Positions 774-64,000 of a DNA stretch of 64,000 nucleotides are shown here, piece by piece. Positions within the stretch are counted from its first letter, which is position 1, and every line of letters starts with the position of its first letter. The stretch lies in assembly GCF_053078305.1 (NCBI RefSeq), contig NZ_CP166879.1; one strand, 5' to 3'. Below the pieces are notes generated by a model. The model was not told the DNA's origin, did no database searches, and saw only the letters and a list, made by a program, of their open reading frames with translations. A program made the position numbers and the translations under genes.

Positions 774-4098
<3,325 letters not shown>

Positions 4099-12771: not shown

Positions 12772-12858
12772 AAATCCCGACCCTGAGGGGGTCGGGATGA
12801 AACTTGCTTAAGCAAGAAGCACTTAAAAAATTCGTTACACCAGGAAATCTGATGTGTT
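12772..12858 (-). ncRNA. dsrA: DsrA small regulatory RNA (Hfq-dependent; known to activate rpoS and repress hns translation)
   Basis: Minus strand reads AACACATCAGATTTCCTGGTGTAACGAATTTTTTAAGTGCTTCTTGCTTAAGCAAGTTTCATCCCGACCCCCTCAGGGTCGGGATTT, matching DsrA from memory, with terminal hairpin and U-tract. Confidence 0.88.
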
Positions 12859-21261: not shown

Positions 21262-21358
21262 TATACCTTTTTATTATTCTGTGTCATGATGCTTCCGTTA
21301 TTAGCCTTTTATCGTCTTGTTTATATTTTTTGGGCCGGCATGATGCCGGCTTTTTTTT
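21262..21358 (+). ncRNA. candidate small RNA ending in a strong intrinsic terminator (possibly RseX, recalled to lie between yedR and yedS)
   Basis: GCCGGCATGATGCCGGC hairpin plus T8 at 21337-21361 in the AT-rich yedR-yedS intergenic region, no ORF upstream; 5' end not defined. Confidence 0.3.
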
Positions 21359-29981: not shown

Positions 29982-30512
29982 ATGAACCGATTCTCAAAAA
30001 CTCAAATTTATTTACATTGGATAACGCTGCTTTTCGTTGCAATAACCTATGCCGCGATGGAACTCCGTGGCTGGTTTCCTAAAGGTAGTAGTACTTATCT
30101 GCTAATGCGAGAAACACATTACAATGCGGGTATATTCGTTTGGGTGTTAATGTTTTCACGCCTGATTATAAAACACCGTTATAGTGATCCTTCTATTGTG
30201 CCACCGCCACCTGCCTGGCAAATGAAAGCGGCTTCGCTAATGCACATCATGCTTTATATAACCTTCCTTGCACTTCCTCTGCTGGGGATTGCTTTGATGG
30301 CTTACAGTGGAAAATCGTGGAGTTTCCTTGGTTTCAATGTGTCTCCCTTTGTTACCCCAAACAGCGAAATTAAAGCACTGATAAAAAATATTCACGAAAC
30401 CTGGGCAAATATAGGCTACTTTTTAATCGCAGCTCACGCTGGCGCAGCACTCTTTCATCACTACATTCAGAAAGATAATACTCTGTTACGAATGATGCCT
30501 CGCCGCAAATAA
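29982..30512 (+). CDS. yodB: cytochrome b561 family protein YodB
   Basis: ORF 29952..30512; start at MNRFSKTQIYLHWITLLFVAITYAAM gives 176 aa. Confidence 0.88.
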   Translation: MNRFSKTQIYLHWITLLFVAITYAAMELRGWFPKGSSTYLLMRETHYNAGIFVWVLMFSRLIIKHRYSDPSIVPPPPAWQMKAASLMHIMLYITFLALPLLGIALMAYSGKSWSFLGFNVSPFVTPNSEIKALIKNIHETWANIGYFLIAAHAGAALFHHYIQKDNTLLRMMPRRK

Positions 30513-31081
30513 GTCGATCCCCTGACAAGGAAATGTGAACCATGGACATCAACGCGTCATAAATGTTTACGCAAGTGCACAATGCACCCTTTCCACTATC
30601 AACAAGGAGGAGCAGAAACTGTGTAAATCGTACAATGGTAAGACTTATCAAAAATACAGGTTAATTTTGGTATTTAAACCTTTTTTACTTGTTAGTATGA
30701 TACAAAGGCTTTCAAAAAAGCTGGGAAATTCAACAACTCTTGGAAATTATGGACTTTGTCCCGCGGCTTTAATCTGACGGCCGCGTTCCTTTTTTGACTC
30801 AATTATTGACCCCTTCTCTACGCAACTTCGGTTCCCACCACCAACTTTGCGGCAGTTTCATAGGATGAATGTCTAAAAGAATAATGGTGAGCGATAAGAA
30901 AACGACTGAATAACTGCACATTTTCGCTCGAAAGCTTCCTGTCAGATCCATAGCGAATCAAGTGCTGAATGTCACAGTATCGAACAGAAAACAGTGACGA
31001 TCTAACCCTTCAAGAATATTCTACGATTGTTCTGTTTAGGAAAAGCAAGGCGGGAAGTCGGGAGATAAGTCATTGATAAAG

Positions 31082-31143
31082 TGGCGGAGAGAGGGGGATT
31101 TGAACCCCCGGTAGAGTTGCCCCTACTCCGGTTTTCGAGACCG
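31082..31143 (-). other. 3' fragment of tRNA-Ser (serU-like), probable prophage attachment-site repeat
   Basis: Minus strand reads CGGTCTCGAAAACCGGAGTAGGGGCAACTCTACCGGGGGTTCAAATCCCCCTCTCTCCGCCA (anticodon arm to CCA); the flanking sequence cannot form the acceptor 5' strand or D-arm. Confidence 0.8.
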
Positions 31144-31352
31144 ATGATACCGAACCGTAAAATCAAAAGGTTATAAATTTTTCTTGGAATAAATGTCTTA
31201 AAAACATACACGCAAAATCAATAAATTACGCGAAATTTGAGAAGAATATTCCAAGCCTTCTTTGAGTTATTTTTAACCATCTTGCTGTTTTTCTTTCTGA
31301 TAAAATATTGCCTGATATCCCTTAACATTACTAATACTTGCGTAGTGAATGT

Positions 31353-31682
31353 ATGAACAATCCGAATCCATGCATGACGTGTGGTGCCTGTTGTGCATTT
31401 TTCCGCGTCTCTTTTTACTGGGCTGAAGCCGATGATGCTGGCGGTACTATTCCCGCCAGGCTCACTGAACAAATATCCCCTTTTCACCGATGCATGAGCG
31501 GTACCAATCAGAAAAACCCCCGATGTGTCGCTCTGGCGGGAACTCCGGGTAAAAACGCATATTGCTCTGTTTACAAAAACCGTCCGTCCACATGCCGGGA
31601 ATTCGCAATGTCCGGAGAAAATGGCATCGCGAATGATGCATGCAACCGCGCACGGGCAAAATACGGACTTCCGGAAATCTGA
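31353..31682 (+). CDS. YkgJ-family cysteine-cluster protein
   Basis: ORF 31338..31682; start at [23 protein letters not shown] gives 109 aa with CxxCxxCC; AT-rich upstream. Confidence 0.6.
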
Positions 31683-31844: not shown

Positions 31845-32516
31845 TTATTCCTGTGCCCAGCCAACCCTGTATGCCAGTATCTCATCCGCACTGGTCAGCT
31901 TTTCCAGCTCCTTCTTCATGGTGCGCTGCCGGACGTGGATTTCCATCCCTTTGGTGAACATCGCCTGCTCTGCCGCTTCACTCAGCGCTATAAGCTCTTC
32001 TGCTGTCACCCCCACATCATTGTTTTCCGCATCCGTCCAGAAAAACGCCTCCGGCAGTTTCCCCGCTTTCGCTGCCGCCACCGATGGCTCAAGACGCGTC
32101 TGCGTTGACTTCCCGTAGTCCCATTTACGCCCATTGTGCTCAAACGTGTAGTTCGCCGCTTCCATCGCATTACGCCAGGCGTTAATTTCATCGCCCTTCA
32201 TCCCTCGCGCTTTCTCCGCGGTCAGCAGGTCCGTGATTTTCTCCCCGTCAAAACCCCAGCGCCCCGAGATGTCAGCTTTGCGGTTTTCTTCCGTATCCGC
32301 CACCTCCACCACACTCTGGCCCACTGGCCACAGAACTGATGCCACCCTGCTGATGCCGGTAATGACTCCGGCACTGTTATAAACCACCTTCAGCGTCTCT
32401 GCTGAAAATAACGACTGACACTCATACCAGTCCTGACCATCCTCTGATTTCAGGTACATCGCACCCGGCACATCCGGATTTTCCGGCGTGTATTGTCTGA
32501 AATTCTTTATGTGCAT
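31845..32516 (-). CDS. tfa: tail fiber assembly protein (Tfa-like)
   Basis: 223-aa ORF MHIKNFRQYTPE...WYECQSLFSAETLKVVYNSAGVITGIS...VVEV...RKADISGRWGF, typical Tfa N-terminal pattern; immediately downstream of stf. Confidence 0.8.
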   Translation of the reverse strand: MHIKNFRQYTPENPDVPGAMYLKSEDGQDWYECQSLFSAETLKVVYNSAGVITGISRVASVLWPVGQSVVEVADTEENRKADISGRWGFDGEKITDLLTAEKARGMKGDEINAWRNAMEAANYTFEHNGRKWDYGKSTQTRLEPSVAAAKAGKLPEAFFWTDAENNDVGVTAEELIALSEAAEQAMFTKGMEIHVRQRTMKKELEKLTSADEILAYRVGWAQE

Positions 32517-32557: not shown

Positions 32558-34285
32558 TTATAATGGAAAATACTCAAACCCCGAAGCTCCTGACGACACA
32601 TACTCACCCACGCTGACTGTACGCCACTGAGAACCATCAAATGTCACCTGAAGCGGCCTGTAAGATACCCTGTCAATAAGGGTTTTGTTTCCGTCGTTGT
32701 AACCGCCAATCCCCGTAATCATTGCACCAATATCCAAATCCACTGCCCATGTAGTGCTGTCTGTTTGCGGCGCATAAGTCTGTTTATTACCCAGCCTGAT
32801 ACCCACAACCCGGCTCTTCCCGTCTGATGCCCCGGGCGGCCCCATCGGCCCGGTTTCTCCACGCTCACCTCTGGGACCGGGGTCTCCTTTCTCCCCTTTC
32901 GGTCCCTGCGCTCCCCGCGGACCAGCGGGGCCTGTTGCTCCCGTTTCACCTTTCGGACCCTGTGCTCCGGGGTCGCCTTTCTCTCCTTTCGGACCGGGAA
33001 CACCACCTCCTGCTGCAGCCTCTTCTGCCTTTGTTTTCGCTTCATTTGCCACATCCATTGCCGCCTTCACGGCCTTCGGCGTGGCTGCCTTTGTTTCGTC
33101 ATTACTGCCAGTATCACTGCTTAACTGCACCACACCTTTCTGCGTCGTGCTGGCATCCCGCTGGCTGACCGTATCCGGTTTGTTTTTTGTGCTGTAATCC
33201 ACCCGCCAGTGGAAATACCGTGTGTCGCCGTAAACCGTACAGGTACAGACCGTGCCATTAATAAACCCCGTTGCACCGTATTCGCCAATGGTGACCCGGA
33301 CTATGGCAGCCTCATACGTTCCCATCACCTCAATGACACAGCCACCCAGATTGAGTTTTCCCGGTCCGACATCCGTGATGACTTTATTCATTGACGCAAG
33401 CAGTGATGCCTTCATCATCCAGTAAGGCTGGTCAAATGCCCCTTTTTCTTTCAGCCAGGCAACAAACTCGCGTGTTTTCCATTCACCGGCCCCCGTATGA
33501 ATGTCCCGCCCGTATACTCTGGCTGCTCCCACGGTGTTCAGAAACTTCACCTTATCCGGGATATCGTCACCGTTTTTCGCTTTCTCCAGGCATCCGTCCG
33601 CTTTGTCCATTGCCGCTTTCACCGCTTTCGGGGTGGCTGCCTTCGTTTCATCATCACTGTCCGTTGCGCTGCTTAACTGCACAATTCCCTTCTGTGCCGT
33701 CGTCGCATCCGGCCCTCCCGGCTCGCCTTTTTCGCCCTTCTCTCCCCGTTCACCTTTCACACCCTGAAGCCCCTGTGGTCCTGTCTCACCACGCTCACCC
33801 TTTGGCCCCCGCTCGCCGGTATCGCCTTTTGGCCCGGGAATACCCTGCGGCCCGGTGTCCCCCTTATCCCCCTTCGGTCCCCGTGCATTCTCTGCCCGTT
33901 TTTTTGCCTCCTCCGCACTGGCTGCGGAGGCTTCCGCACGTTTCAGGATTTCCGCTGCCACCGCTTCCAGCTCTGCAAGGGCTTTCGGGTAATACTGTGC
34001 GTCTTCCAGGTCCATCAGAAATTTATTCAGCGTTCCCGGTGCAGAATCCGCCTTCACCAGAATGTCACCCACATATGACGGCGCGTACCCTTCCGTGTTC
34101 AGCGTCACCCGGTACAACCCCGGCTCAACATCCATACTGTAACTGCCGGTTTCCCCCGGCAGACCATACGCCACCGTGGTGACAATCACCGTCTCCGTTG
34201 TGCGTCGCGCTTTCAGCTCTATCGTGCATCCCGGTACCGCTTTTCCCGTACCATCCTTCAGCACACCCGATATTCTGACTGTCAT
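32558..34285 (-). CDS. stf: side tail fiber protein with collagen-like Gly-X-Y tracts
   Basis: 575-aa ORF; N-terminus [28 protein letters not shown] resembles lambda Stf; two [17 protein letters not shown] tracts and two [10 protein letters not shown]...[15 protein letters not shown] motifs. Confidence 0.85.
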
Positions 34286-34568: not shown

Positions 34569-34766
34569 AAACGCTTGCTCCTTTTACGGAGAGGCGCTAA
34601 CCTTCCACTTGTTGAAGGTAGGAACGTCAGGCCTCGGGTTAAACATGAATGTTTGTCCGGGGCCTTTTCACATCCGGCCTTCAGGTGCTCCCTCCGGCCA
34701 TCAGCCAAAGGCACCCGCGCATAATGTACGGTTTTTGTCTCCTTCCGGCAATCCGGCTCCTCATGA

Positions 34767-37700
34767 TCACGAAATACTGATACCCGCCGTGGACTTCTTC
34801 ATCACGACAACCAGCAGATCGCTGATACTCGCTGTCGGGTACCATCCATTCACCAGCCAGGCAGACACAGAAAACTCCAGCGTCATATGCCCCCTTCCTG
34901 CAGGCATATCAATCACCCCTGAATACACCTGAGACTCAGCCAGCGCCGTCCTTTCAAAAAGCACCCTGCCGTTACATTTCACCATCAGCCGGCATGATGA
35001 ATAAATATCGTTATGCTCTCTCTCATGTTTAGCGCCGCTGAAAGCCACTGCCGGGATCACAATTTGCCGGTCAAAAGGCTGATCGTCATAAATCCTGACG
35101 GTAATGGTCCCCGATGGCCACCGCTCCGGTGCGCGGGAGTCCCGCGGGAAAGCCTTCCCCACGGTTTTAACAATATCGCCTTCAATCTGGTTGGCAGACA
35201 GTTTTCCAAGTATCCGGCAGTTCTGGTTAATGGTCACATTATTGAGCGTGCCCGAGTTCGCACTGATATGTCCGCTGATGTCCGCATTGCGGGCCGTCAG
35301 CCTGCCCTCCGGCGTCAGGGAGAACGTCGGGGGATTGCCGGACGAGGTGATGCTCACTGCAAACAACCGCTTCAGGAACACATCGTTCATGAACAGCTGA
35401 TTCCCCTGCGCCACAAACAGCGGCGTGGTGTTGCCGTTCTCCGGGTTAATCATCGCGATACGGTCCGCCTGCAGCAGTATATTGCTCAGGGGCTGGCCAT
35501 CAGCATCCTCAATCCCCGCACCAATACCGGCAACATACGGAATGCCGTTTTTCGTTTTCTGCACCTTCAGCATGTACAGCGCAGCCAGGTCGTTATTTGT
35601 GTCTGTCTGCACCCGCTGTATCTGCTGTATGGTGGCACTCTGGTCTTCCAGGGTTTTACTGACCGTCTGCGTGATTTCATTGCGGGTTTCGGTGATGGTG
35701 GTCTTCATCTCCGCCATCTCATCATCAAGCTGGCTGTTATCAATCAGCTCCCACATCCCCTGTGCCAGATGTGTCTTCCCGATTTCTCCTCTGAAAAAGT
35801 CCAGATACCCTTCCGCATCATTGCTGGCCCGGCCACTGGCTTCCACAAACGCAGATTTCCCCACCAGGTTGACGCTGCGCACATAAAACCAGAAATCCTT
35901 CCCCGGCTTAATGTGCGGGCCGGAGACACTCCACTGGCGGCCTGTCCCCAGATAACGGGCAGAGGTTTCCACCTGAGATGTGTCTGCGATTTTTGCCTCC
36001 GAAAACCAGAACTCAAATTGTACCGTCGGGTCATACACCGTAAGATGCGGGACCGCCGTTATCTGATAATACCCCGGCGTCAGCTCAATGCTGTCCGGTG
36101 CTGCCGGGGCGTTAATCCGGAACGTGGTGGTGGCAGGTTCGCCCTGCTGGCCGTAGCTGTTTATCGCCCTGACCGTCAGGGTGTATTCCCCGGGCGGCAG
36201 GCCACTGAAACGGTGCTCCGTATCGGCAGTGATGGCGCTGGTCACCAGGCGGCTGTTTTCACCACTGCCACTGGTCAGGCGCAGACTGAAGCGCACGCCC
36301 TTCACCACCCGCGGCGTGTCCCATTTTGCCAGCGCCATATACTGGCCGTCTGAGGCACTCACCTCCACCGTGAGGTGCTGCACTGCCGGCGGGATGACGC
36401 TGTTCAGTGAACCGGAGAGCGGCTCAAAGCGGGCCCCGTTATCCACGATGGCTTCTTTTTCCGGTACGTGCTGCACTGCCGTGATGGCAAAGGTGCCGTC
36501 CGTGTTTTCCCGGATGGAAACACAGCGGAACAGGCGACGACGCAGTGACGGCAGGGAGAGTCCCCACACACCGTATGTCTCCACGCCATCCGGCAGGGCG
36601 CTGACCTGTATCCGGTCAGGGGCGGGGTGTGCAGTGATGTCCACGCGCACCGGCTTACCGCTGCCGTTAATCAGGTTCACCGTCGATGTACCTGCTTCCG
36701 GCAGTGTCACCTCACGGTCCAGCGTCAGTGTGCGGCTGGCGGCATCGATGGACAGGATGCGTCCACCGGTCAGGGTCCCGGCATAGTCGTTATCACAGAT
36801 TTCAATGATGTCACCGGGCGTGTGCCGCAGCCCCTGTGACCCGAGCATGAAATCCACCGTCTGTGTTTCCAGCAGTTCTGTCTTTATCACCCACAGTCCG
36901 GCACGGTGGGCCTGACCGCGGCTGGTACAGCCGAACGCATCCATCTTCAGCAGATTGCGCCCGTAGCGCAGGATGGCGTCCGGGTCTTCCACCAGTTCCG
37001 TGGAAGTCTGCCAGCCGTTCTGCGGGTCAGTGTAATTCACCTCCACCGCCGTGTGCCGGTCCTTCAGGGCACTGAAGCTGTAGCGGAACCCCACGCCGTT
37101 ATCATCCACCACCACATCGCTGTTGGTGTACGGCCACACCACATCCGACGGACGGTCCTGAACGAACGTCAGCGTCTGGCCGTTCCATACCGGCATACAG
37201 CGCATCGCCGAGCAGAAATCCCCCAGGACATCCCACACCTTACGCTGCTGTGACAGGTACGCATTGAAAGTCATCCGCGGCTCTGTTCCCCCGAAACCAT
37301 CCGGGACCGTCTGGTCACAGTACTGCCCGATGGCATACAGTGCCCACTTGTCCACGTCCGGGGCCCCCAGGCGTTTTCCCATCCCGTAGCGCGGGTGGGT
37401 CAGCATGTCCCACAGGCACCAGGCCGGGTTATTGCTGTATGCCGGTTTCAGACTCCCGTCCCAGATACCGCTGTAGGTGCGTTTTTCCGGGTCATAGTTT
37501 GACGGCACCTGAATGATGCGACCACGGATATGGTAGTTCACCGTCAGCTGCTGGCCACCAAACTGCTCCGCATCCACCTGCAGCCCCACAATGGCCGTGT
37601 TCGGGTAGCACTGTTTCACATCGATGATTTCGGTGTATGACGACCACAGCGTTCTGTTCTGCAGCTGGTCCGTGGTGCTGTCCGCCGTCTCCCTGACCAT

Positions 37701-38240
37701 CCGGATGTTAAAGGGGCGCTCAGGGAGATTATTCAGAATCACCGACGTCAGGTACTGCGAGGTGGTCTTGCCGTTAATGGTGATATCCTTCTCCGTCACC
37801 CAGTGCCCGTTACGCTCAAGCTGAATCAGCAGGCGGACAGAAGAGGGATTACGGTCACCCTTTGAGGTGGTCTCCACCAGTGACTGTACCCCGAAGGTGA
37901 CCCGCAGACGGTCAATGTTCGCTGACGTGATGGTGCGCGTCACCGGCTTTGCCTTCGTCACCTCCACGCCCAGTGCGGTTTCCGCCCCGGAGGACTCAAA
38001 GCCTTCCGGCGGTGTCTGCTCCTGCTCCCCGGCACGCCAGACGGCGGTCACACCGTGTATCACAGGATTACCGTCCGTGTCCGTCAGCGGGGTTTTGTTC
38101 ACCAGAATACTCTGCAGTCCCTTCACCGGGCCTTCCACCGGTCCCTCACCAATGGCATCAATCACGCTCATCATCTGCGTGGATTTGAGATTGTCCTTCG
38201 CCTCACGCGGTGTGTGCCCCTTGCCGCCCCCTTTACCCAC
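34767..38240 (-). CDS. J: host specificity protein J (central tail fiber)
   Basis: ORF 34767..38291; GTG start at 38240 gives [22 protein letters not shown] aligned to lambda J N-terminus; similarity along most of the length, C-terminal 150 aa divergent. Confidence 0.92.
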
Positions 38241-38280
38241 TCTGTCCCCCTCTCCTGTCTGATGTCTGAATCTGTTTATG

Positions 38281-38314
38281 CCCAAAAACAACAGGCACCC
38301 CGGAGGGTGCCTGT
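38281..38314 (-). terminator. intrinsic terminator-like hairpin upstream of J
   Basis: Minus strand: 9-bp stem CAGGCACCC/GGGTGCCTG, loop, then TTGTTTTTGGG. Confidence 0.5.
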
Positions 38315-38488: not shown

Positions 38489-38572
38489 GCTTCAGCCACA
38501 CCACAACATCCTGCTCATTTACGCCACTGGTACCCTGGCGGTCATCCGTTCTGTAAACCTGCGACAGAAAAA

Positions 38573-38722
38573 GTCTGAATTTCTTCACATTTTCTGTACG
38601 TTCCCGTGGCAGATATCATTCCGGGGCGTTACAGTTTTTTCGGGTCAATAAAAACAAAACTCCTTGAACGTTAATCTTCATCGGTTCTGTCCCGCAGTCT
38701 CCGGACTCTGCGGGATTTTTTT
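38573..38722 (+). ncRNA. candidate small RNA, unit B
   Basis: Same conserved box; weaker -10 (gatatcat); terminator cccgcagtctccggactctgcggg plus T7. Confidence 0.3.
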
Positions 38723-38800
38723 ATCCCTTAACCCCGGCATGATGTTTTCTGTCTTCTGCCACAGATACCCGGCAAGCTCCCTGCACCTCTGCAGCAAAAA

Positions 38801-40284: not shown

Positions 40285-40983
40285 TTACTGCGAAAGTTTA
40301 TTGATGGAAAGGAAACCGCCAAAATTGACCGCCATGCCGCGCATCTCACACCCGCGCATGCATTTACTGCATCTGTCCTTCCGGATATCCGTGGTAGGGT
40401 TGTCGAACTCATCCGCCACTGCCGGACCGTTATACCCGCACTCATCGCCCCGGTAATCCCACATACAGGTGTTCGCCAGCATGATGCGACCGGGAAACAG
40501 CGCCCCGTCCGTCTCCGTCGGTGTCGCCAGCACAAACGAGGCCGTCATGGCCGTCAGCGCTGATAACTGCTCCACCACCCACCGGTCCGTCAGCTCCTGC
40601 TCCGGGTCTGCCTCCGGATTCCCCGCCACAAAGTTCACCGCATCAAGAAAACGCGCATACACCCGGCGGCGGACCACCGTGGCACCCACCAGGCTCTGCA
40701 AATCCTCCGCCATCCCGGTGACAAGGCCGAAAAGATTGGACACCGTCAGCGACGGGCGGGCACTGCTGCCCTTTCCGTTCATCTCAAAGCCGCTGCCCTC
40801 AATCGGGTACGCCTGATATTCACGCCCCTGCCAGGTCACCGGCTCCCCTTTTTCATTCAGCTCATTGCAGAAAAAATACCGCTCACCGCCCTGCACCGTC
40901 AGGTCGATTTCCCAGAGCACCACCCGCGGTGACTGCTCTGACTTAACCGACTCGTTCAGGCTTTCTTCGTGAATATCCTGCAT
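40285..40983 (-). CDS. L: minor tail protein L
   Basis: ORF 40285..41025; start at MQDIHEESLNE; VVLWEIDL...GERYFFCNE...GEPVTWQGREYQ resembles lambda gpL. Confidence 0.9.
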   Translation of the reverse strand: MQDIHEESLNESVKSEQSPRVVLWEIDLTVQGGERYFFCNELNEKGEPVTWQGREYQAYPIEGSGFEMNGKGSSARPSLTVSNLFGLVTGMAEDLQSLVGATVVRRRVYARFLDAVNFVAGNPEADPEQELTDRWVVEQLSALTAMTASFVLATPTETDGALFPGRIMLANTCMWDYRGDECGYNGPAVADEFDNPTTDIRKDRCSKCMRGCEMRGMAVNFGGFLSINKLSQ

Positions 40984-40994
40984 ATATCCGCCCA

Positions 40995-41019
40995 TAAAAA
41001 AGGGGCGCAGACGCGCCCC
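40995..41019 (-). terminator. intrinsic terminator ending the porin insert
   Basis: Minus strand hairpin GGGGCGCGTCTGCGCCCC plus T7, 12 nt before L start codon. Confidence 0.65.
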
Positions 41020-41192
41020 GAACAATAAAAGTCCAATTTAAAATAAAACCAATAAAGGTAATAACAGAAAGTTAAATCAGCACATGCCAGATGGCAATTG
41101 CTGATCGCAGTGACCAATGAAAACTGTGTTTTCATTGATACAGGCCGCCTGTAAGGGCAGACGGCCCGTATTTATTAACTTATCAGCAATAA

Positions 41193-60353: not shown

Positions 60354-60599
60354 TTACATCATCATGTCGCTGTCAGGTGTGGGGTCACCGCCATCTGAAG
60401 CACTCCCCTCACCCGCGATACCTTCCGGCTCCGGAACTGCCGGTGCGCCCAGCAGTTCATCCAGAATGGCATCCACTTCTGCATCAAGACGCGCCTCAAG
60501 GTTCTGGCGGAGTTTCTGTTTCAGTGCGCTCAGGACTTCTTCAGAGCGCAGGACTTCCTTCACTGCCTCTGCAGTGACCAGGGATGTAATTTCTGACAT
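60354..60599 (-). CDS. hypothetical small acidic protein
   Basis: ORF 60354..60773; start at [30 protein letters not shown] (81 aa); no family recognised. Confidence 0.4.
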
Positions 60600-60969
60600 G
60601 GGATTTTCTCGTCGAAAGGTGTGATTAAGAAAGTTGCAGCTAAATGAGCGGCTCTTCGGGTTTGCTTCCGGCTGACTGACTGGCGCTGATTTTCTCTGCG
60701 GCCCTTTTATCAATCTGCCTGCGCCAGAAATCGCGCACTGCCCTGTACCCACCCGAAAGAAGATACAGCACACAGACCGCCGTACAGAAGTACAGCATTA
60801 ACTGGTTCAGAAATGTCATGGTTTCTCACCGTGATAGTTGACATGATTTACTTATTTTTGTAGAAAAACACCGCAGACTTCGGTGTCATCATGGTCGTTT
60901 TACCAGCCGCCAGCATTCATGTAGTGGACACAGTTCATCCCTTTCCTTCATTGCTGGCGGCCTTTTTTA

Positions 60970-62937
60970 TCATGCCGCGGCGTCCGCGTTGTTCACTTCC
61001 ACCTTCACACTGTCAATCAGCAGCGTATATGTCGCCGCCTTTGATATGCCTGTCAGTTGCAGTTTGTCCGCCGCCCCTGATGCCGGAGATTTCACCAGTG
61101 TGAACGGTGTACCCCGTTTCTCATCCAGTACCGGCGTCACCTGAATGCTGTTGTTTCCGGCAAACTCAAAAGCCAGTGTGTGCCATCCGTTATCAAAGAC
61201 CCCGAACGTATCCAGCTTCGCATTCTGCTTCTTGTGGTACATCGCGTTCAGGTTCGTCGCATCCGTCTGCAGGAAGAAGGACATCAGCATGTCGTTGCCT
61301 TCCTCTGCCAGCGTCACTCCCTCCGGCAGGGACGACAACTGCCAGTAAATACCCAGGGCAAACTGATTCGGCACCAGTGCGCCCGGCACCTTAAACCGCA
61401 CGCTCACACGTCCGCCTTTCTTCAGCAACTCTGCCCCCTTCCCGGCGGCATCATGCTCCAGAAACCAGATGTGGCTTTCCGGTTTGTTCAGTTGCAGGGC
61501 CTTACCACCGGTGGCACCCTCATCACTGACCACGGCCTCAGCGATGTTTTTATCAACACTGTCTCCGCTCGCCGGTTTGTGATAATAGCGCCAGCCCTGT
61601 GATGCCAGGTCTTCACCGGACGCCAGCAGACTCATCAGGGTTCGGTTACTGACCGGGGCTTCCGGCTCTCTCTCCGGGCCTTCACCGGAAGGTCCGGTGG
61701 GCTTCACCGTATCAGGCTGTTTTCCGGTAATGAATTCAGCGGTTCTCCCGGCATGCACCAGAATCGCCGTTGCCAGACGGTCGGAAATAATCCCACGGCG
61801 AGCCCATGAACTGAAATGGCTGGCCCTGTCCACAGATGTCCAGGTCTTCTGGTCATTACGCCACTTTGAACCGTAATAACCGACGGCTTCCAGGTCCGGG
61901 TCTTCTGCCGGGTCATTGGTCTGCACATTCGCACCATTCTCATCCGTCATTAACGGTACAAAGAAAATGTTCTGCGACTCCTTACCCTTATACCCTCCGT
62001 ATACTGATGCATACCCTTCCGCATGACGCTGCTTCCAGAAATACGTTGTGTCCCCGCAAATCCACGGTACCGCTGATGCGCTGCCTCCTGTGCTCTGTGA
62101 TGCCTGACCGGCAAGCTCCGTTCTGAACTGATTCACCATCGCACTAAACAGCCCCGGATGCTGCGCATGCGTCCCCACTGCCGCATCACCTTCTCCCTGC
62201 ATCCACACCACCGCAAGCAGACGGTTTTTCGGGTTCTTCGCCAGTGCGGCTTTAGTCCGGCTCACCAAATCCTGATACAGCGGCTTACCCACACCCCAGC
62301 GCAGTGAATTTTCCGATGCACCGGCTGATTCGTTGTATGTGCCGTCTGCACCCGTTGTGAATGCCGAAGCACCACGGCAGCACGGAACCAGCAGAATGCC
62401 CGCATTCGCCGGTATAAACGGCAGCAGTTTTTTGGCGATATGCAGCCCCTGCCCCACGGTTCCGTACTGCCCCTTTGACAGGTCCGCTTTCGGATGGTTA
62501 AGACGGCTCATGTCCTGCACATCATGCAGACAATGGTCCGCCGGAATAATGTCGTTATACTTACAGGCGGCACCGCCCGGTGTCACCGTACTGCGACGCG
62601 CCAGCTGCTTAATACGCGGGTCCGGACGGTCATATGTCTCCGGCAGCGGAAGGCCTTCACCATACGACATGCCGTTTGACTGCCCTGCCAGAACCACAAC
62701 AAAGTAATACTCCGGGTCGCTGGTGGCGCTGATTACTGTGCCTTCTCCATCCGACGGCTTCACCACCACAGGTGTGGTGACATCACCTTCCGCCGCAATG
62801 GCCTGCATCAGGGTATAAGGCGTGATGGCCACCGGGCTGCCAAATGGCTGCCACCCCTCCTTCAGTTTTTGAGTCAGTCGCTCCGCAAGGTCTGACGGCG
62901 ACGCCGCCCTGACCACGTCATAGTGTTTAAATGCCAT
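60970..62937 (-). CDS. prophage sialate O-acetylesterase (NanS-p-like)
   Basis: 655-aa ORF: N-terminal domain MAFKHYDVVRAASPSDLAERLTQKLKEGWQPFG (recalled as DUF1737-like), catalytic motif VVLAGQSNGMSYGEG, C-terminal beta-rich domain; upstream of the lysis cassette. Confidence 0.85.
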   Translation of the reverse strand: MAFKHYDVVRAASPSDLAERLTQKLKEGWQPFGSPVAITPYTLMQAIAAEGDVTTPVVVKPSDGEGTVISATSDPEYYFVVVLAGQSNGMSYGEGLPLPETYDRPDPRIKQLARRSTVTPGGAACKYNDIIPADHCLHDVQDMSRLNHPKADLSKGQYGTVGQGLHIAKKLLPFIPANAGILLVPCCRGASAFTTGADGTYNESAGASENSLRWGVGKPLYQDLVSRTKAALAKNPKNRLLAVVWMQGEGDAAVGTHAQHPGLFSAMVNQFRTELAGQASQSTGGSASAVPWICGDTTYFWKQRHAEGYASVYGGYKGKESQNIFFVPLMTDENGANVQTNDPAEDPDLEAVGYYGSKWRNDQKTWTSVDRASHFSSWARRGIISDRLATAILVHAGRTAEFITGKQPDTVKPTGPSGEGPEREPEAPVSNRTLMSLLASGEDLASQGWRYYHKPASGDSVDKNIAEAVVSDEGATGGKALQLNKPESHIWFLEHDAAGKGAELLKKGGRVSVRFKVPGALVPNQFALGIYWQLSSLPEGVTLAEEGNDMLMSFFLQTDATNLNAMYHKKQNAKLDTFGVFDNGWHTLAFEFAGNNSIQVTPVLDEKRGTPFTLVKSPASGAADKLQLTGISKAATYTLLIDSVKVEVNNADAAA

Positions 62938-63132
62938 GAATCCTCCCGGTCGGGATAATGTTGTGAGTCAGATAAGGGGCGGGCTGAAGTCCGGAAGTTA
63001 CAGGACAATGACAGAAGGAAGACTACAGCCCGCAATACGAAAAAGGCCGCGCAGTTGCGCAGAGTGATTACTGTCGGGTATTATTCGCCAGCTGAAAAAT
63101 TGATTACTTCACGTTTTGTTGTTTATTCCTTG

Positions 63133-63833
63133 CTGCCCGCATCTCACCATGCGGGCTTTTTTTATCCATAAGAAAGCCCCTCCGGAGAGGGGCTGGAGTA
63201 GCGCTATGTACCGTTCATTGCATGATGCCGGGTGCCTCCCGGTGAGTTCAGCCCGGTGCCACCGAACCCGCGTCATTCTCGCTAACGATCATCAGAGACC
63301 ATACCGTACACCAGCCGCCCCTCCGCACAGGGGGATTCATCATGCAGAAATTTTTTAACAAATTCTCAGTCGGGAAGACAACCTTCAACTGACTGAATTG
63401 TGAGCAACATAGCATTTAACGGGGAACCTGTTTTCTGCAGTAAAAAGGCCCACCGGAGCGGACGGGCCTGGAAGGATAGCGGTCATGTGATGCCGGTTTC
63501 CCGGTAACTCAGCACCGGTATCTGAGTCAACGTTTTCTCTACTGGGTCATTTCCGATACGCCCTGCCTGCTGACAGGCTTTCATCACATCTGAAAATATA
63601 GCACCCTGACTGATACTGTAGTACCCAAGGTTCCAGAAACTGTGATGTATCCGGCACAGAAAAGCCCCTCCGGAGAGGGGCTGACGCTGCGTATCTGTAT
63701 CATCATGCGCATGGTGCCGGGTGCCTCCCGGTGAGTTCAGTATCAGCACCTGAACCCGCACAGAAAGGATAAGGGATGTAACCAAACACCTGTCGCTGAT
63801 ATGCCCCTCCGCTCAGGGGGATTCACCATGCCA
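63133..63833. repeat. imperfect direct repeat (two copies, period about 488 bp) of a hairpin-rich element upstream of the esterase gene
   Basis: Shared blocks gcccctccggagaggggc (63176 / 63664), ccgggtgcctcccggtgagttcag (63228 / 63716), cagggggattca(t/c)catgc (63319 / 63806); additional hairpin plus T7 at 63133-63158. Confidence 0.8.
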
Positions 63834-64000
63834 GTTTCTTTTAACAAACTCCCCGCAAATCAGACAACTGTCAACCGTCTGAATTGTGAGACATTTAAAA
63901 TTTTCGGGGCAACAGGAAGACAATCATCACGACACCGGCAACCAGCGACCGGCACCAGATTTAACGTATGTGCACACAACCTGAACCGGCATCAAAAAAC

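Follow-up and report, generated by a model that had tools for sequence, protein, structure and literature searches.

The window, meaning the whole 64,000-nt stretch of DNA analyzed here, contains a boundary between chromosomal and phage DNA near its middle. The final chromosomal gene ahead of this boundary is yodB (29982..30512, plus strand), which encodes cytochrome b561 and was identified by colinearity with K-12 yodB and by a Pfam match to Ni_hydr_CYTB (E = 3.7e-22). It is followed by the yodB-serU intergenic spacer (30513..31081), which lies downstream of the tRNA 3' end and has the same length as in K-12 (569 bp), with 4 mismatches in an ungapped alignment. When the window was aligned without gaps to K-12 MG1655 from upstream of yodB to position 31143, 7 mismatches were found in ~1,260 bases, and beyond 31143 the match dropped abruptly to random level. 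In K-12 and many other strains, the serU site at this place is unoccupied and carries an annotated tRNA-Ser. This agrees with the original prediction, which had placed an intact serU after yodB in K-12. One side of the boundary is thus chromosomal DNA (K-12 yodB and the 569-bp spacer) colinear with a site that is empty in other strains, and it represents the chromosomal flank of an attR. Among the complete E. coli genomes compared over window positions 1-24000, none was closer than 99.4%, indicating that the host lineage is unrepresented among complete RefSeq genomes; when a close complete relative of the host was sought across the junction region, the best match was 97.1%. The chromosomal part of the window also encodes the small RNAs DsrA (12772-12858, minus strand) and RseX (21268-21357, plus strand), as in the K-12 region.

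The last chromosomal bases are a 62-nt 3' fragment of serU, the gene of tRNA-Ser (CGA), at 31082..31143 on the minus strand. Read on that strand, the fragment is CGGTCTCGAAAACCGGAGTAGGGGCAACTCTACCGGGGGTTCAAATCCCCCTCTCTCCGCCA. Sequence comparison with nt 29-90 of K-12 serU gave 62 identical bases of 62, and a BLAST search of the window with the complete 90-nt serU found this match with E = 4e-28. In the tRNA, the fragment begins with base two of the anticodon stem and includes everything through the terminal CCA; the claim that it covers the anticodon arm through the CCA end is exact. The boundary therefore bears an incomplete tRNA copy that consists of the 3' portion and does not differ from the host gene. 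It was also claimed that the neighboring sequence could not supply the 5' half of the tRNA, and this held. The first 28 nt of serU had no significant match in the window, and the 90 nt occupying the serU position folded without an acceptor stem or a D arm (-26.2 kcal/mol, z = -0.48), in contrast to the cloverleaf of real serU (-40.6 kcal/mol). ARAGORN called no tRNA gene in the 64-kb window, and no tRNA was found by Rfam at the gathering score in the whole window or at E ≤ 1 in 30800-31500. A complete tRNA-Ser at this position, the result that had been named in advance as contradicting the prediction, was thus not found by ARAGORN, Rfam, or folding. The complete cloverleaf of a functional tRNA-Ser gene, with acceptor stem and D arm, is absent from this position, and the stub should be labeled an attachment-site repeat or pseudo-tRNA and not a damaged essential gene. 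In KU052038, the same sequence is indeed recorded as a pseudo-tRNA.

Several weak Rfam matches arose near the stub. The family RF04351 (Plastid-psbl-rps4 3' UTR) matched 31085-31136 on the plus strand, antisense to the stub, with E = 3.5e-07 and under the gathering score. We regard this match as spurious; it probably arises from an overlap between the family and the complement of a plastid tRNA-Ser gene. The permissive search also produced weak matches to tmRNA and sX4 near the stub, which were likewise considered spurious.

A similarity arising by chance, or a chimeric contig produced by misassembly, could in principle place a tRNA fragment against phage DNA. The identity of all 62 bases at the exact syntenic position refutes this reading, as does the recurrence of the junction elsewhere: STEC1585, an independent complete genome, has it with 99.8% identity across 453 bp, and a query of the window-type right junction including its phage arm was matched at ≥80% coverage in at least 821 of 5,426 complete E. 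coli genomes. The chance of such an artifact is practically nil. In further complete genomes, the stub is present with a different phage arm.

Directly beside the stub, where the similarity to K-12 has stopped at 31143, lies an A+T-rich phage-derived attachment-site arm (31144..31352). The arm is common to phage records and to the right junctions of two prophages, that in JNEC-KY171 (NZ_AP045167.1; hereafter KY171) and that recorded as SerU-LTIIb. It contains two copies of the octamer ATTCCAAG, one at 31183..31190 on the minus strand and its inverted partner at 31248..31255 on the plus strand. The two octamers are 58 bp apart and are the sole copies in the 64-kb window. On the integrase side of the KY171 prophage, the arm carries three tandem copies of TTGGAAT(A/T). 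From their arrangement, the ATTCCAAG motifs may be arm-type integrase binding sites, and we list both as candidates.

From 31144 to 64000, the window consists of the visible part of a lambdoid prophage, which runs past the right end. This segment is colinear with the KY171 prophage at 94-99% identity and contains tail, head, terminase, and lysis genes, a SASA esterase gene, and two STnc100 copies. The large prophage genes are all on the minus strand. The first gene past the junction (31353..31682, plus strand) encodes a YkgJ-family cysteine-cluster protein, as judged from a Pfam CxxCxxCC match (E = 1.8e-12) and the YkgJ annotation of its counterparts in KY171 and many other genomes. Next to it, a gene for a DUF4376 protein (31845..32516, minus strand; Pfam DUF4376, E = 7e-17, and KY171 annotation) lies where a gene for tail-fibre assembly would be located. 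The side tail fibre (32558..34285, minus strand; Pfam phage_tail_N, Phage_fiber_2, and Collagen) and the tail tip attachment protein J (34767..38291, minus strand; Pfam GpJ domains) follow. Further Pfam matches in the prophage identified a tape measure protein, a portal protein, a capsid/protease fusion, and the large terminase subunit, and the lysis genes and SASA esterase are present in the late region. Tail, head, terminase, and lysis genes thus continue to the window end, and the DNA on the other side of the boundary is that of a phage. The statement that prophage DNA directly follows the fragment was borne out by these genes, which begin at 31353 and keep the KY171 order.

Some features of the prophage were observed in addition. 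A full-length gene for an OmpC-family porin of 384 aa (41193-42347, minus strand; Pfam Porin_1, E = 6e-144) is located inside the tail operon, flanked on the same strand by ORFs at the positions of the KY171 genes annotated "phage tail protein" (42546-42887) and "minor tail protein L" (40285-41025). The porin gene is also present in the KY171 prophage, where it is annotated ompC. The two copies of the STnc100 small RNA family lie in tandem at 63164-63374 and 63654-63860 on the minus strand, with scores of 168 and 135 bits, respectively, upstream of the SASA esterase gene. At 50060-50664 there is an internal repeat with an offset of 162 nt, and 50060-50502 is ~95% identical to KY171 in two registers. 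The repeat falls within an ORF of 407 aa (49606-50829) beside the portal gene, and the KY171 annotation has a single frameshifted portal gene at the corresponding place.

The complete arrangement can be read in KY171, the closest relative found. Its serU prophage, ~55 kb long, lies in the order yodB, spacer, identical 62-nt stub, YkgJ gene, tail, head, and lysis genes, Q, early region, DUF4224 gene, tyrosine integrase, intact tRNA-Ser, mtfA, and asnT. The arm adjoining the stub differs from that of the window by one mismatch in 40 nt. The prophage tccP/espJ of O157:H7 EDL933 is likewise inserted between mtfA-serU and yodB, with the 3' stub at the yodB spacer and with a tyrosine integrase and a DUF4224 gene adjoining an intact serU. 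There, the distance from the junction to the integrase end is 44 kb. The 62-nt block is repeated at both prophage ends in KY171 and EDL933, in line with the proposal that the fragment in the window is an attachment-site repeat. Integrase, intact serU, and mtfA were found together in KY171, in EDL933, and in five further contigs, and the KY171 integrase allele adjoins mtfA in all five contigs that are long enough to show its neighbor.

Searches of the window for the other prophage end gave negative results. We found no second copy of the 62-mer in the window, and no significant match there to mtfA (DNA and protein), to asnT, or to an integrase of the KY171 type, a serU-prophage type. The point in KY171 equivalent to the right end of the window is ~22 kb from the integrase. 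By analogy with KY171, an attL belonging to this prophage, together with its integrase, an intact serU, and mtfA, would be expected ~22 kb past the window, a prediction that we consider well founded. The original prediction described mtfA as missing. This is correct for the window but does not stand as a statement about the genome: as in the comparators, mtfA is probably displaced and not deleted.

One alternative takes the missing mtfA literally. The serU prophage would be a degraded remnant from which a later deletion removed the integrase end, the 5' part of serU, and mtfA. The visible sequence does end at 64483, and PMC7067040 describes serU lambdoid prophages as often rearranged or partly replaced. 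However, the visible 33 kb keep the order of a full-length relative as far as the window reaches, and the mtfA-serU region had a match in 5,421 of the 5,426 complete genomes, so its loss would be exceptional. We consider a remnant highly improbable.

The DNA to the right of the window was approached through public contigs. When the SASA esterase was looked up by exact protein identity, a single public contig was returned, JPQG01000010.1 of GCA_000736735.1, which is identical to the final 13 kb of the window but for a 1-bp indel near 63167. This contig stops 483 nt beyond the window, inside the prophage. Eleven contigs were read from a look-up of the KY171 integrase, and none of these came from GCA_000736735.1. 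A second contig of the same assembly, JPQG01000003.1, was found via the KY171 DNA methyltransferase and considered as the left-end contig; it was rejected, because it carries a different, second lambdoid prophage with a lambda-type terminase. JPQG01000003.1 shares 4.4 kb at 97.6% identity with the right end of the window (60054-64000 and beyond, from the lysis genes to the esterase), through the contig break. The assembly of JPQG01000010.1 probably breaks off because of this shared region.

The same shared region admits another arrangement, in which recombination between near-identical modules of the two lambdoid prophages, by inversion or swap, left the junction in the window unpaired. The end with integrase, serU, and mtfA would then sit on the late region of the other prophage, giving a chimeric or split prophage. 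The 4.4 kb shared with the JPQG01000003.1 prophage lie exactly at the contig break, which favors this reading, but a repeat of this kind breaks short-read assemblies even when nothing has been rearranged. Direct evidence for a rearrangement was not found, and the arrangement is simple in the comparators KY171 and EDL933. We judge the exchange improbable; even if true, it would still be a known type of event in E. coli strains with several lambdoid prophages.

Taken together, the region is best explained as the right junction (attR) of a lambdoid prophage that was put into serU by a phage tyrosine integrase through site-specific recombination, and we assign this interpretation a probability of about 0.93. 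Integration into the 3' end of serU had been proposed from the same DNA. With the chromosome on one side and the phage on the other, every part of that proposal that can be tested here holds. In the model, the 3' 62 nt of the tRNA would also be present in the phage attachment site itself. The strands would be exchanged near the 5' end of this 62-nt block, within tRNA nt 29-47, the anticodon stem-loop region. Integration would join the 5' part of host serU to the 3' part borne by the phage, yielding a complete, working tRNA at attL beside the integrase and mtfA, and the original host 3' 62 nt would be left on the yodB flank as a non-functional stub.

Sequence variants in serU bear on the position of the exchange. 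At the left junctions of seven of seven lysogens (KY171, EDL933, and five draft contigs), the complete serU differs from that of K-12 only by A48G and T59C. In the right-junction stubs of the window, KY171, and EDL933 (n = 3), the host bases A48 and T59 are kept. Within the long variable arm, nt 48 is paired with nt 59, and the two changes are therefore compensatory. The presence of G48 and C59 at attL, as opposed to the host A and T in the stubs, indicates that the attL sequence 3' of nt 47 is phage-derived and that the stub is the displaced host copy. On this comparison, the crossover probably lies between nt 29 and nt 47 of the tRNA. As observed in these seven lysogens, lysogeny slightly alters the sequence of host tRNA-Ser(CGA) through the G48:C59 pair supplied by the phage. 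This pair is a simple sequence marker of serU lysogeny for draft assemblies in which the prophage is split over contigs.

The junction sequence was also encountered in phages with a different integrase. The lambda-like phages ev099 (NC_049953.1) and mEp332 (PV340541.1) carry in their b region a fossil of the serU junction equivalent to window positions 30804-31262. In the numbering of the compared segments, it lies at 2745-3203 in ev099 and at 2051-2509 in mEp332, and, at 93-94% identity, it takes in 278 nt of the chromosomal spacer between yodB and serU, all 62 nt of the stub, and ~120 nt of the phage-derived arm. Its orientation relative to the tail-fibre genes is the same as in the window. 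PhiR70_1 likewise matches the stub and the arm. What ev099 encodes is essentially lambda Int (E = 1.5e-236 to the lambda integrase in PDB), an enzyme only 22% identical to the serU integrase. The possibility that ev099 and mEp332 are themselves serU-integrating phages was rejected on the grounds that the integrase is lambda Int and that 278 nt of chromosomal flank are carried as well. The fossil looks like host DNA that was acquired when an ancestral serU prophage excised imprecisely and was then passed on to phages that integrate elsewhere.

A serU-type attR junction is a known and very common kind of junction, and nothing about the junction itself is new. Published work names serU among the sites at which Stx and other lambdoid phages insert (PMC8065619, citing Steyert et al. 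2012; PMC7067040). The left junction of mtfA, serU, and the integrase end was present in 1,143 of the 5,426 complete E. coli genomes, about a fifth, when matches of this query were counted at ≥80% coverage. The locus has little significance past its correct annotation, in which the stub sets the right boundary of a ~55-kb lambdoid prophage.

Among described examples, the EDL933 tccP/espJ, LT-IIb, and KY171 prophages come closest. Although it is the nearest of these, the KY171 prophage is not the same phage: segments such as window 34755-35229 and 38505-38795 are diverged or replaced, and its integrase allele has no record in GCA_000736735.1. The EDL933 tccP/espJ prophage, which we take to be CP-933U, the equivalent of Sp14 of strain Sakai, is 95% identical to KY171 at the integrase-side junction and differs from the window on the other side. 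Its stub matches serU over 61 nt, compared with 62 nt in the window, its phage arm is unrelated, its cargo is espJ and tccP in place of the YkgJ gene, and its head and terminase genes are lambda-type, whereas those of the window prophage are HK97-type. The record KU052038 ("Escherichia phage SerU-LTIIb"), a prophage with the LT-IIb enterotoxin, shares yodB, the spacer, the identical 62-nt tRNA-Ser pseudogene, and a similar arm, and is 98.2% identical to window 30186-31259; past the arm, this partial 10-kb record continues with other tail-fibre genes and the LT-IIb toxin genes. More broadly, phages and islands with tyrosine integrases target the 3' parts of tRNA genes, as do P22 (thrW) and P4 (leuX). 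Such elements carry the 3' part of the tRNA, rebuild the gene on integration, are flanked by a direct repeat, and have the integrase beside the intact tRNA, and the serU prophage differs from them only in the particular tRNA and the integrase allele.
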